Part shown: in pieces, positions 24,367-27,813 of the stretch
How positions within the stretch are numbered: the first letter of the stretch is position 1
Layout: every line of letters starts with the position of its first letter
DNA from: an uncultured Candidatus Saccharibacteria bacterium
GTDB lineage: Bacteria > Patescibacteriota > Saccharimonadia > Saccharimonadales > CAZPPF01
Length of the DNA: 35,353 nucleotides
Reading direction: 5' to 3'
NCBI GenBank assembly: GCA_964627365.1
Contig: CAZVJS010000002.1
Coordinates: 1 to 35,353 of the forward strand
The notes under the pieces: model-generated
The model's input: only the letters and a program-made list of their open reading frames with translations
Told to the model about the DNA's origin: nothing
The model's database searches: none
Made by a program: the position numbers and the translations under genes

Positions 24367-25629
24367 ATGCTCGACAAAGCCAAAAGCGCGGTCTTTCAGG
24401 CTCGCAATCTCGTACTACCAGACAAAACCAAGAACCTTACTGCCGATGATGTCCAAAAAGCTCGGCGGTATATTGCTGATTACTGGAAAGAGCTTGAACG
24501 ATTCCACCCGAACGATGACAAAACTCTGGTGGGCTTGCCATATCCGTATCTCATCCCTTCTCAGGATGGTTCATATGGTTTTAACGAGCTTTACTACTGG
24601 GATAGTTACTTTATGGTGCAAAGTATGATGGACAAAGACCACATCCAGCTAGTCAAAGGCGTAGCTGAGGACCTTTTAACACTGATGCAGCGATTTCACA
24701 TCATTCCCAATGCCTCGCGAACCTACTTTACTGGCCGCTCGCAGCCACCACTGCTAACGAGTATTATTTTTGACGTTTACAAGATTGAACAAGACAAAAT
24801 GTGGCTCGAGAAGGCCATTGCCATTGCCAAAGAAGAATACGAAAACGTTTGGATGGGAACTGCTCAACCGAACTGGCGCCAGGTGTACCGAGGCCTTAGC
24901 CGCTACTATGACATCAACACCCTCCATGATCTAGCCGAAGCCGAAAGTGGCTGGGATATGACCACGCGCTTTGGGCGTCGGGCGCTGCACTATTTGCCGG
25001 TCGATCTGAACGCCTTACTGTATAAATACGAAACCGATTTTGCCGAAGCTGCCCGAATACTGGGTAATGAGGGCCAAGCTCTGGACTGGCAAGCCAAAGC
25101 GAATGATCGAAAAGAAACAATGGACGAGCTGATGTGGAGCAAAACTTTTGGTATTTATTACGATTACAATTACAAAAAAGACAAGCGGGGAACAGTTTCG
25201 TCTCTGGCAACCTACTACCCAATGTGGGCGGGTATGGTTACCGACAAGCAGGCCAAACAACTCGTCAAAACATTGCGCAAGTTTGAGCACAAAGGCGGTC
25301 TGTCTACTACCGATAATCAACCAATTTCTCAGCTGGTACCGGGCAGTATGCCAGTGCAATGGGCCTATCCAAACGGTTGGGCGCCTTTGCACTTTATGGT
25401 CGTCCAAGGGCTAGAGCGATATGGCTATCATGAAGATGCCGAACGCATTGCTCACAAATGGTTGCATACCAACCTGATATGGTTCAACAAACACGGCGAA
25501 TTCGTAGAAAAGTACAACGTGGCTAATCCCAATAAGCCAGCCTCAGAAGGCGTTTACCCAAGCCAAAAAGGCTTTGGTTGGACCAATGCCATCTTTGAAC
25601 GCTTCTGCCAAGATTATATTGACCAGTAA
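24367..25629 (+). CDS. Trehalase (GH37), apparently cytoplasmic
   Basis: GH37 signatures YYWDSYF and QWAYPNGWAPLHF. ATG at 24367 is preceded by aagga. The ORF-track start at 24316 is TTG. There is no signal peptide. Confidence 0.8.
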   Translation: MLDKAKSAVFQARNLVLPDKTKNLTADDVQKARRYIADYWKELERFHPNDDKTLVGLPYPYLIPSQDGSYGFNELYYWDSYFMVQSMMDKDHIQLVKGVAEDLLTLMQRFHIIPNASRTYFTGRSQPPLLTSIIFDVYKIEQDKMWLEKAIAIAKEEYENVWMGTAQPNWRQVYRGLSRYYDINTLHDLAEAESGWDMTTRFGRRALHYLPVDLNALLYKYETDFAEAARILGNEGQALDWQAKANDRKETMDELMWSKTFGIYYDYNYKKDKRGTVSSLATYYPMWAGMVTDKQAKQLVKTLRKFEHKGGLSTTDNQPISQLVPGSMPVQWAYPNGWAPLHFMVVQGLERYGYHEDAERIAHKWLHTNLIWFNKHGEFVEKYNVANPNKPASEGVYPSQKGFGWTNAIFERFCQDYIDQ

Positions 25630-25668
25630 TAGACGCACTAGCTATATTCTTGCTACAATGTCAACTGA

Positions 25669-26391
25669 ATGTTGATTCTTAGTCCCGAAGTAGATCTAGA
25701 ACCACAAGAACGACTGGTCTTGGCAGTTGACACAACAGATGTCTGGCAAGCTCATCAGTATGCCAAGGTCGCCAAATCTGCAGGTGCAAAAATCATAAAA
25801 CTTGGCTTGGAGCATGAATCTTTAGATGGTCCTAGACCCTGCTCAGAGTTAGCGGAAGACAATGGTCTAGAGTGGATTGCGGACTTCAAAACTTATGCAA
25901 CATCAAAAACCATTGCCCCTGTCATCACTAGATATACAAGCCTAGCTCATCCACCAATAGGGATAACGATTAGTTTACATTCCGGTGAGCAATCTCTCCG
26001 GATAGCACAAGAGATTGCCGGACAGAAAAATATAGCAATATTTGGTGTTGGCCATCTTTCAGTTATCGATAATATTGAGACAGAAATGTACGAAGGGATG
26101 GGGGCACATTCATATTTTATGATGCAAATAGAACGGGCAGTCAACACTGGTATCCAAGGGATGGTTTGTTCGGGGTTAGAGGTTGCCGATGTGGCGTCAG
26201 CTGGCTTGGTTAGCTTGGTCGTAGCAACTAGGTCCCGTGGTGTTGAGATAGTTGGTGATGATCAAAAGCGCGTTACTACACCGGCAGAAGCAAGACTCTC
26301 AGGAGCAACGCTAATCGAAGTTGGTAGACAAGTTATCGAGGCCGAGAATCCAGTTGGTGAAATGAGAAGAATACGTGAGGAAATAGCCTAG
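25669..26391 (+). CDS. Orotidine-5'-phosphate decarboxylase-like protein with a variant active site
   Basis: It aligns along its length with PyrF: VLAVD, IIKLG, ADFKTYATSKT (in place of DLKLHDIPTT), GMVCS and DDQKRVTTP...VGR. The second Asp of DxKxxD is Ala (codon 25897-25899). Confidence 0.65.
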   Translation: MLILSPEVDLEPQERLVLAVDTTDVWQAHQYAKVAKSAGAKIIKLGLEHESLDGPRPCSELAEDNGLEWIADFKTYATSKTIAPVITRYTSLAHPPIGITISLHSGEQSLRIAQEIAGQKNIAIFGVGHLSVIDNIETEMYEGMGAHSYFMMQIERAVNTGIQGMVCSGLEVADVASAGLVSLVVATRSRGVEIVGDDQKRVTTPAEARLSGATLIEVGRQVIEAENPVGEMRRIREEIA

Positions 26392-27054
26392 GTGCCAAAT
26401 TTATCAGCTGAAGTGTTTAGAGACCAGCTCATGGCAACACCCGGATTCATTGATGAAGAGGGGGTGGTGCATCATGAATTTAACGGTGGAGATCATGGCC
26501 TCAAGATGGACTTTGGGGTGGTCAAGAAAGGAATGCCCGAATACGACACATGGGTAGAACTCAACAGAGATGCTATTCGCTCTAGATATCCGGACTCTAA
26601 TGAACTTATTGTTGTTGGAGTAGCTAATGGCACAACTGACTTTGCATTTGATGTGGCCGATGCTGTGGGGCATCATGCCGTTGGTTTAAAGTCAGAAAAA
26701 CTACCCGATAAACAAGTTCGATTAACTCAGGCAGCTAAGCTCTATCTAGAAAATTACATGCGTAAGGAACCAGCTGTAACTGTTGTGCTTGACGATGTTG
26801 GTACAACGGGGCGTCTAGCTGGCCTGCTAGCCCTGGAATGTCTGAGTGTCGGGGCAGTGTCCAGTGATGTGCAATACACTTGGCAGCGCTCACGTGTTCT
26901 GTGGTTTCTGAAAAATCTGGAAAAGGATAAAAAGAATAATATTCGGCATGTTGCGTTGATCAATGAAGTTGTGCCATCACTAAGCCCTAAAGATTGTCTT
27001 TCAAAAGGAGACTGCTCAAAAGGAGTAGAATTAATACCACATGGCGAAGATTAA
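26392..27054 (+). CDS. Type I phosphoribosyltransferase (OPRT-like)
   Basis: The GTG start abuts the previous stop codon. The PRPP-binding loop VTVVLDDVGTTGRLAG is present. Confidence 0.65.
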   Translation: MPNLSAEVFRDQLMATPGFIDEEGVVHHEFNGGDHGLKMDFGVVKKGMPEYDTWVELNRDAIRSRYPDSNELIVVGVANGTTDFAFDVADAVGHHAVGLKSEKLPDKQVRLTQAAKLYLENYMRKEPAVTVVLDDVGTTGRLAGLLALECLSVGAVSSDVQYTWQRSRVLWFLKNLEKDKKNNIRHVALINEVVPSLSPKDCLSKGDCSKGVELIPHGED

Positions 27055-27352
27055 ACCTACATTAGACAACTACCAAGAGCTGGTCAAAAAGCTGGTGGTT
27101 GAACGGGGTTTTGACAAAGAAACTGTTCCTGAAGTATTTCTAGTGTTTGCAGAGGAAGTAGGCGAGTTTGCTAAGACAATACGCAAAGCGAACAACCAGA
27201 AGACCAACACAGACGCACGCCATCATAATATGGAAGATGAAGCCGCCGATGTCTTTTTCATGTTAATTGATCTATGCAATCGCTTGGGCATTGATCTAGC
27301 CAAAGCCTTTGCTGCCAAAGAAAAGAAAAATCAAGAAAGGACATGGTCATGA
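27041..27352 (+). CDS. MazG-like nucleotide pyrophosphohydrolase (small all-alpha type)
   Basis: 103 aa with EEVGEFAK ... EDEAADVFF metal-binding motifs. It overlaps the previous gene by 14 nt. Confidence 0.7.
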   Translation: MAKIKPTLDNYQELVKKLVVERGFDKETVPEVFLVFAEEVGEFAKTIRKANNQKTNTDARHHNMEDEAADVFFMLIDLCNRLGIDLAKAFAAKEKKNQERTWS

Positions 27353-27813
27353 GCGCTGAACCAACGTTTGTACCCAAAGATGGGCAGGTAGACTTTACGA
27401 ATGCTCGTTTTTGCCCAGTCATTAACTGCGTGGTGGAGCACGAAGGCAAGTTACTGATGGTCAAGCGCAACAAAAACCTGCGCTTATATCCTGGTCTTTG
27501 GAATGGGATATCTGGTTTTTTGGATGATAAAAAGACCCTGGAAGAAAAGGTTCATGAAGAACTAGCAGAGGAATTATCAATCAAGCCTGAGCATATTCAA
27601 AAGATAGAACAAGGTCCAGTAATTGTCCAAGAAGCACCAGATTATGATAAGACCTGGGTTGTCTTTCCGGTCCACGTTATCGTTAACACTGATAAATACA
27701 AACTCGATAGTGAAGCCTCTGAAGCTAAGTGGCTGACACTATCTGAGGCGCGATCTAAAAATTTACTGCCTGGCTTTGCTGAGGTCATCGACACAATTTT
27801 TGGGGCCTATTGA
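27349..27813 (+). CDS. Nudix hydrolase
   Basis: The ATG at 27349 forms an ATGA overlap with the MazG stop and lies 7 nt after aaagga (an alternative ATG is at 27343). The Nudix-box-like GFLDDKKTLEEKVHEELAEELSI is present. Confidence 0.7.
   Translation: MSAEPTFVPKDGQVDFTNARFCPVINCVVEHEGKLLMVKRNKNLRLYPGLWNGISGFLDDKKTLEEKVHEELAEELSIKPEHIQKIEQGPVIVQEAPDYDKTWVVFPVHVIVNTDKYKLDSEASEAKWLTLSEARSKNLLPGFAEVIDTIFGAY

Follow-up and report, generated by a model that had tools for sequence, protein, structure and literature searches.

The window analyzed here, a 35,353-nt stretch of the forward strand of contig CAZVJS010000002.1, is a chromosome segment of a tiny-genome Saccharimonadales bacterium from soil, a member of the candidate phyla radiation (CPR), and matches MAG GCA_035480795.1. 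Between positions 25,669 and 27,813, it carries four consecutive open reading frames (ORFs) that encode a protein of the orotidine 5'-monophosphate (OMP) decarboxylase (OMPDC) fold (ORF1), a PyrE-like type I phosphoribosyltransferase (PRTase; ORF2), a MazG-type nucleoside triphosphate (NTP) pyrophosphohydrolase and a Nudix hydrolase (Table 1). The ORFs and their junctions are positioned as in a preliminary description of this DNA, which was made without database searches: the stop codon of ORF1 abuts the start codon of ORF2, a 14-nt overlap (27041-27054) joins the PRTase gene to the MazG gene, and the MazG and Nudix genes share an ATGA overlap (27349-27352), with an alternative Nudix ATG located 6 nt upstream at 27343. 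No terminator is predicted between the four genes. The locus is noteworthy for ORF1, which represents a rare, constrained OMPDC clade in which an Asp that all OMPDCs are reported to have is missing and a candidate compensating Glu is present. We argue that the ORF1-ORF2 pair may be the remnant of a pyrimidine pathway.

Table 1. Features of the four-gene locus, in positions of the window.
Feature	Position	Strand	Remark
Two overlapping sigma-70-like promoter candidates	25619..25659	+	pattern match; putative function
ORF1, OMPDC-fold protein of the rare DxKxxA clade	25669..26391	+	240 aa
D72-F-K74-T-Y-A77 motif, Ala replacing the trans-subunit Asp	25882..25899	+	
Codons of K80 and T81, after the DxKxxA motif	25906-25911	+	
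Codon of Glu217	26317..26319	+	beta-strand 8, 3 residues before the phosphate-binding Arg220
ORF1 TAG stop and ORF2 GTG start, in frame and contiguous	26389..26394	+	
ORF2, PyrE-like type I PRTase	26392..27054	+	220 aa
PRPP-binding motif V-V-L-D-D-V-G-T-T-G	26782..26811	+	ORF2 residues 131-140
Small single-domain MazG-type NTP pyrophosphohydrolase	27041..27352	+	103 aa
Nudix hydrolase	27343..27813	+	156 aa, or 154 aa from the ATG at 27349

ORF1 is a true OMPDC-fold protein. It matches Pfam family PF00215 (OMPdecase) with 71.4 bits (cutoff 27) and remains below the cutoff of the NCBIfam pyrF equivalogs (scores/cutoffs of 79.3/193, 58/92.3 and 44.9/208). A phmmer search against the PDB returned OMPDCs only, with the segment DFKTYATS aligned gap-free to DLKLHDIP. 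The AlphaFold2 (AF2) model has a mean predicted local distance difference test score (pLDDT) of 88.9 and a best template modeling (TM) score of 0.84-0.85, reached with bacterial OMPDCs, and the 50 matches listed by Foldseek are all OMPDC chains, some of them deposited under another name (TM 0.72-0.85). As the sequence and fold matches are all OMPDC, membership of the KGPDC or HPS families, against which a placement had been proposed, is ruled out, and the OMPDCs are the nearest relatives.

The preliminary description held that ORF1 aligns end to end with PyrF and yet lacks the second Asp of the DxKxxD motif, which contributes to the Lys-Asp-Lys-Asp' catalytic tetrad. Both statements are borne out. 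The codons read D-F-K-T-Y-A, so that the complete motif is absent, and Ala77 stands opposite the second Asp without a gap, both in pairwise alignments to solved OMPDCs and in multiple alignments; the Ala is conserved in the clade to which ORF1 belongs. That the Asp might reappear after correct gapping was foreseen as a refutation, but four independent alignments have no gaps near the motif and an alignment artefact is thereby ruled out. The downstream positions differ as described, ORF1 reading 'TS' where the 'IP' follows the motif and 'GHLSV' at the 'TVLTS' (QLTS) position. The residues contacting ribose, phosphate and pyrimidine (D21, K44, T81, S131, Q199, G219 and R220) are all present and invariant in the clade.

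The Ala clade comprises six known lineages, a count that also includes the L003/L008 genome (L and P numbers denote related loci and proteins, respectively). All six belong to the Saccharimonadales, have Ala at position 77 and share 42-49% identity with the window protein. When 5.8 billion proteins were searched by word index, three close relatives of ORF1 were retrieved (47-50% identity), followed by ordinary PyrF proteins at approximately 30%. HMMER, run exhaustively on 1.84 billion representatives, yielded 5,310 matches and added a single deeper member (P0088). A metagenome scan with the clade alignment found no new members; it returned an already known contig and, via a GDDQKR pattern, ordinary pyrF. 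The clade is monophyletic, with a canonical 'WVADAKxxDIP' group as its sister, and DxKxxD is kept in 19 of 19 other ordinary-type Saccharimonadales OMPDCs found beside the same PRTase family.

Within the clade, the remaining canonical active-site residues (D21, K44, D72, K74, T81, S131, Q199, G219 and R220) are invariant at nine of nine positions, compared to 57 invariant columns out of 240 overall. Such invariance would arise by chance with P ~1.4e-6, which indicates purifying selection on the active site rather than decay. Ten residues are both unique to the clade and invariant within it: K36, A77, K80, K120, F125, S131, Y141, V185, an inserted V192 and E217. The combination of A77, E217, K80 and V185 is confined to this clade among the best 152 of the 5,310 HMMER matches. 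One protein, P0094, carries D77 together with E217 and is possibly an intermediate state.

In other OMPDC-like proteins, the motifs for catalysis and phosphate binding are heavily eroded (P0104, P0110, P0122, P0126, P0130, P0133, P0134 and P0138). Some of them have G, T, K, H or C at position 77, and others have lost Q199 or R220; the two loci of this type that were looked up (L133 and L135) are stand-alone, with no adjoining PRTase. A further homologue, P0087 (L046:4308-5423), is 371 aa long, has an N-terminal extension of 118 residues and reads DFKYYG, with Gly for the second Asp; a PRTase of the ORF2 family follows it in L046.

ORF2 was previously described as a divergent type I PRTase rather than a clear PyrE. 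The divergence stands. Its AF2 model (pLDDT 94.6) predicts a type I PRTase fold that is closest to the orotate phosphoribosyltransferases (OPRTases): the top Foldseek matches in the PDB are the OPRTases 4paw, 4rv4, 2aee, 2prz and 1lh0 (TM 0.58-0.66, identity 11-16%), and a profile search of the PDB returned only PRTases, with weak scores, the M. tuberculosis OPRTase among them. The ORF2 family is discrete, with no gradual fall-off in score toward canonical PRTases, and counts 50 clusters in a single-sequence search and 107 in a profile search. It occurs in 37 GTDB species, 30 of which are labeled Saccharimonadales or Saccharibacteria, most others having only generic labels. Source annotations vary between 'orotate phosphoribosyltransferase(-like)', 'phosphoribosyltransferase' and 'hypothetical', and some relatives of ORF2 do reach PF00156. 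The family is PyrE-like and specific to the lineage, and current profile libraries largely fail to detect it.

Invariant in the family are D21, H27-H28-E29 of a VHHEF motif, H35, K38, G76, K103, the 5-phosphoribosyl 1-pyrophosphate (PRPP) motif [DE]DVGTTG, R166 of TWQR and two C-terminal cysteines. An hhalign comparison of the family with E. coli PyrE covered 53 columns at 8.5% probability, from the PRPP motif through R156 only. The orotate-binding and loop residues of E. coli PyrE we take to be K26, F34/F35, K73, R99-K103, T128 and R156; the residues aligned to T128 and R156 are invariant in the ORF2 family. The three invariant N-terminal His (H27, H28 and H35) and the two C-terminal Cys (C202 and C208, spaced C-x5-C or C-x2-C) may form a structural metal site that clasps the hood to the C-terminus.

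The identity of ORF2 is supported most strongly by genomic context. An OMPDC gene lies directly upstream of the ORF2-family PRTase in 24 of the 37 species loci, and in several relatives the pair is part of a larger pyrimidine cluster. The gene order is prs - pyrF (type 2) - PRT - pyrD in L027 (4115-9721), pyrF - PRT - pyrD in L044 (5130-7691), and pyrC-like - (pyrD) - pyrF - PRT - pyrB in L017 (3070-7447) and L026 (4069-7492); in L027, as in L017 and L026, pyrC-like, pyrD and pyrB genes are present around the pair. From its place in these four clusters it follows that the family fills the pyrE slot, and with the best folds being OPRTases as well, the alternative of a PRTase other than PyrE is not upheld. 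The pair is therefore a divergent pyrF-pyrE remnant rather than a part of a new four-gene pathway. As a separate observation, much of the de novo pyrimidine pathway survives in these four Saccharimonadales loci.

ORF1 and ORF2 share one reading frame with a single TAG between them. A sequencing error at this TAG is ruled out, since the TAG/GTG junction is identical across four independent assemblies, and the N-terminus of ORF2 after the GTG is conserved among its homologues. In relatives, the OMPDC and PRTase genes lie in different frames with a 4-nt overlap, which rules out a fusion or read-through protein and identifies ORF1 and ORF2 as two coupled genes.

In the window, the pair occupies a slot between trehalase and metRS-tatD genes, which is filled differently in related loci. 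A canonical OMPDC with the PRTase is found in L012, L014, L029, L033 and L036, the Ala-OMPDC with the PRTase in the window, L001, L008 and L131, the PRTase alone in L028 and L037-L041, and the Ala-OMPDC alone in L045 and L132, metRS coming directly next in the latter. This mosaic shows ongoing reductive evolution. PRTases without an adjoining OMPDC retain all family motifs. The OMPDC-PRTase pair is also conserved in other contexts, such as loci linked to a tRNA-dihydrouridine synthase (Dus) gene. Dus recurs just upstream of the pair or of a lone PRTase (L006, L013, L015, L018, L020, L021, L023, L025, L034, L042 and L046), and in L020, L021, L023 and L025 it abuts the PRTase directly and is preceded by a HIT-family gene. 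In L043 (1752-2373), the PRTase beside a canonical OMPDC looks disrupted (tblastn segments 1-89 and 126-219; ORF of 173 aa) and may be a pseudogene. Neighbor-joining trees of the PRTases are star-like and do not resolve vertical inheritance of the pair.

Since the slot is a mosaic and the two genes are not strictly co-dependent, two other explanations stay alive beside a functional salvage pair: a neofunctionalized enzyme, weighed below, and a pathway that is being dismantled. In the latter, the Ala variant would be dead or nearly so, either transient or kept as a non-catalytic, nucleotide-binding partner of the PRTase. Every state (both genes, PRTase alone, OMPDC alone) is present in the same slot, the clade evolves fast, and other OMPDC-like proteins with eroded motifs exist (position 77 replaced by G, T, K, H or C; Q199 or R220 lost), some of them stand-alone. 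Yet the ORFs are intact in six lineages at just 42-49% identity, and the invariance of Ala77 and nine other active-site residues (P ~1e-6) does not resemble drift. We consider a relic unlikely.

How an OMPDC could work without the second Asp is suggested by the position of Glu217. In yeast OMPDC, the substitutions D91A, K93A and D96'A each left no detectable activity, D96' also helps to bind the ribosyl hydroxyls, and DxKxxD has been reported in the OMPDC of all organisms (PMC12874384). In the M. thermautotrophicus enzyme, I200 is among the barrel-lining residues and the segment containing K42 touches it through van der Waals interactions (PMC12395307). I200 is situated three residues before R203, the same spacing as that of E217 to R220, and the AF2 model places E217 on beta-strand 8. 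The clade has lost the trans-subunit Asp (M. thermautotrophicus D75', yeast D96') and, on the same branch, gained Glu217 at the I200 position as well as Lys80, with the gripper-loop Pro changing to Val185. Because the tetrad's first Lys has I200 packed against it in the M. thermautotrophicus enzyme, we propose that the alternating network has been shifted rather than destroyed: one end of the Lys-Asp-Lys-Asp' chain would have lost a carboxylate and the other end would have gained one. It would run Glu217-Lys44-Asp72-Lys74, entirely inside one subunit, with the phosphate, ribose and pyrimidine contacts unchanged.

The gene identities, conservation pattern and synteny are observed; we infer the substrates of both enzymes and read the pair, with a probability of approximately 0.45, as a pyrimidine-pathway remnant for orotate-to-UMP (uridine 5'-monophosphate) salvage by an OMPDC with the shifted charge network Glu217-Lys44-Asp72-Lys74. 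The PRTase would condense scavenged orotate with PRPP to OMP, which the upstream TIM-barrel protein would decarboxylate to UMP; the retained decarboxylase activity and the compensating role of Glu217 are putative. PRPP-dependent salvage of orotate was one of three explanations offered earlier, and we judge it the most economical. In the literature on Saccharibacteria or CPR bacteria, a search found nothing relevant about pyrE, pyrF or orotate.

Several observations weigh against orotate salvage. Two of the six Ala-clade lineages (L045 and L132) have no adjacent PRTase and the PRTase stands alone in the same slot in six related species, so that neither gene strictly depends on the other. The Ala clade also diverges faster, with pairs of its members at 47-49% identity where canonical OMPDC pairs have 57-68%, at MetRS identities of approximately 70-78%. 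ORF2 has no Pfam or NCBIfam match at E <= 1 and thus reaches no PyrE model, the position of PyrE K73 is seemingly Gly in its family (GVANGTN versus GPAYKGIP, compared by eye), and we know of no counterpart of its invariant His and Cys residues in canonical PyrE. Finally, given that yeast D96'A has no detectable activity and that the motif is universal in reports (PMC12874384), retained activity would need real compensation.

A serious rival is a neofunctionalized enzyme, in which the clade would bind a pyrimidine-like ribonucleoside 5'-phosphate but carry out another chemistry, or use another substrate than OMP, independently of the PRTase. The lost residue is one without which yeast OMPDC has no detectable activity (PMC12874384), the changes near the active site (A77, K80, E217, S131, V185, F125 and Y141) are concerted, invariant and unique to the clade, divergence is accelerated, the gene persists unbroken in L045 and L132, where no PRTase adjoins it, and de novo nucleotide synthesis is generally reported to be missing from the host lineage (PMC7786006). 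However, the residues contacting the phosphate, the ribose, the base O2 and the reactive C6 (K74 and D72) are all unchanged, the translationally coupled PRTase is kept in four of the six lineages and could be encoded elsewhere in L045 and L132, and the neighboring genes suggest no alternative substrate. We regard this explanation as rather unlikely. Conceivable, if doubtful, is a new OMPDC-derived enzyme of a nucleotide-scavenging epibiont in which the single-subunit network Glu217-Lys44-Asp72-Lys74 plus Lys80 would serve a non-OMP nucleotide or a non-decarboxylative reaction without the PRTase.

Of the identities assigned earlier to the third and fourth genes, MazG is confirmed and Nudix is supported by Pfam matches above threshold (MazG: PF03819, 33.9 bits, cutoff 22; Nudix: PF00293, 43.7 bits, cutoff 21.1). 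The MazG protein has the metal-binding motifs EEVGE and EDEAAD, of the pattern EExxE ... ExxD, and its nearest solved proteins are small house-cleaning types (YpjD-like, DCTPP1 and MazZ). The nearest solved relatives of the Nudix protein are generic Nudix enzymes; by eye, its Nudix box (27490-27570) is partly degenerate relative to Gx5Ex7REUxEExGU, with K for the first E, E for R and S for G, while the E-U-x-E-E core is kept. Genes for 6PGL, 6PGD and G6PD lie between the PRTase and MazG genes in L001, L008 lacks MazG and has a different Nudix gene, a HIT protein takes the MazG/Nudix position in L014, and in many relatives nothing separates the PRTase from metRS. The insert in L001 (9430-12431), the closest long relative, consists of three or four genes (6-phosphogluconolactonase, a split 6PGD and G6PD); as oxidative pentose-phosphate genes lead toward ribose 5-phosphate, a precursor of PRPP, it may be functionally tied to PRPP supply.

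The preliminary description took the four genes as one unit and named lack of conservation of the MazG/Nudix linkage as the sign of chance neighbors. The linkage is indeed not conserved among relatives, being absent from L001, L008, L014 and many others, and a four-gene functional unit is thus not supported. MazG and Nudix are house-cleaning hydrolases in a variable slot upstream of metRS and are co-transcribed neighbors at most. A nucleotide-modification, nucleotide-degradation or conflict pathway of all four genes, in which MazG and Nudix would act on the product of the pair, could draw on the coupled or overlapping starts and stops, the lack of a predicted terminator between the genes and the recurrence of OMPDC-PRT-MazG-Nudix-metRS in L029, although the Nudix gene there is a different one. 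With neither gene present at many loci and overlapping genes being usual across the window, we find it very improbable; synteny largely refutes the earlier suggestion of a modification or degradation pathway. For the conflict system that had also been suggested, PADLOC gave no match for the OMPDC, PRTase or MazG proteins and only a weak PDC-S07 match for Nudix. On this result and the conserved housekeeping synteny (trehalase ... metRS-tatD), an anti-phage defense system is rejected as unsupported.

All main ORFs of the window lie on the + strand and approximately one third of their junctions overlap, so the tight packing is not distinctive for this locus. The window also encodes pyruvate kinase, PGK, TIM, UvrD, KsgA, BipA, a two-component system, an ABC exporter, trehalase, MetRS, TatD and a class-V aminotransferase. 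Pfam scans of approximately 30 other ORFs found no pyrB, pyrC, pyrD, carAB or prs, in agreement with the earlier observation that no other pyrimidine biosynthesis gene is present in the window. Upstream of ORF1, the two overlapping promoter-like matches are TTGACC-18-TATATT and TAGACG-18-TACAAT; the latter has a TG extension and its -10 element ends 9 nt 5' of the ORF1 ATG. The extended -10 box noted before ('tgctacaat', 25651-25659) belongs to one of these matches and is present, but such matches are not enriched (13 in the region versus 9.2 +/- 3.2 expected in shuffled sequence). No obvious Shine-Dalgarno sequence precedes ORF1 (25651-25671), and its mRNA would be leaderless or nearly so if the TG-extended candidate is used.

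OMPDC is the standard example of extreme catalytic proficiency, and each tetrad member tested was needed for activity. Should OMP decarboxylation have been retained in the Ala clade, this clade would be, in a textbook 'most proficient' enzyme, a naturally occurring exception to a motif that all OMPDCs are reported to have. A natural, conserved variant without the trans-subunit Asp, in which a candidate compensating Glu would touch the first Lys, offers a ready test of how much of the network is indispensable. Among the Saccharimonadales, some keep pyrB/C/D/E/F clusters, others pyrF-pyrE only and others a single gene, which qualifies the blanket claim that these bacteria cannot make nucleotides and points to orotate or another base as a scavenged currency.

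Among known systems, the OMPDC-then-PRTase order, here in the same frame with a single stop between, is that of a fused or complexed OMPDC-OPRT (UMP synthase), as in trypanosomatids. The 4-nt overlaps in different frames in relatives imply that the two proteins are separate, and no evidence points to read-through.

With PyrE (H. pylori 4PAW, S. typhimurium 1LH0 and M. tuberculosis 5HKL), the ORF2 family shares the predicted type I PRTase fold, which includes an N-terminal hood, as well as the PRPP motif [DE]DVGTTG, the Arg and Thr that align with E. coli R156 and T128, the pyrE position in relatives' clusters and translational coupling to pyrF. It differs in its low similarity (identity 11-16%, TM ~0.6, no Pfam or NCBIfam match), its own invariant motifs (VHHEF, HGxKxDF and GVANGTN), a C-terminal Cys...Cys pair that may be a metal site, its confinement to Saccharimonadales and other CPR bacteria, and the frequent lack of an adjacent OMPDC.

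ORF1 resembles bacterial type 1 PyrF (B. subtilis 1DBT and E. coli 1EIX) in its (beta/alpha)8 fold (TM 0.84-0.85), its end-to-end alignment, its equivalents of M. thermautotrophicus D20, K42, D70, K72, T79', S127, Q185, G202 and R203, and the place of its gene directly upstream of a PyrE-like PRTase, whereas it scores far under the NCBIfam equivalog cutoffs. In its clade, Ala replaces the second Asp of DxKxxD (M. thermautotrophicus D75', yeast D96'), 'T/I-S/T/P/L' replaces the 'IP' after the motif with an invariant Lys two positions on, Val replaces the gripper-loop Pro, and Glu replaces the barrel-lining Val/Ile three residues before GR.

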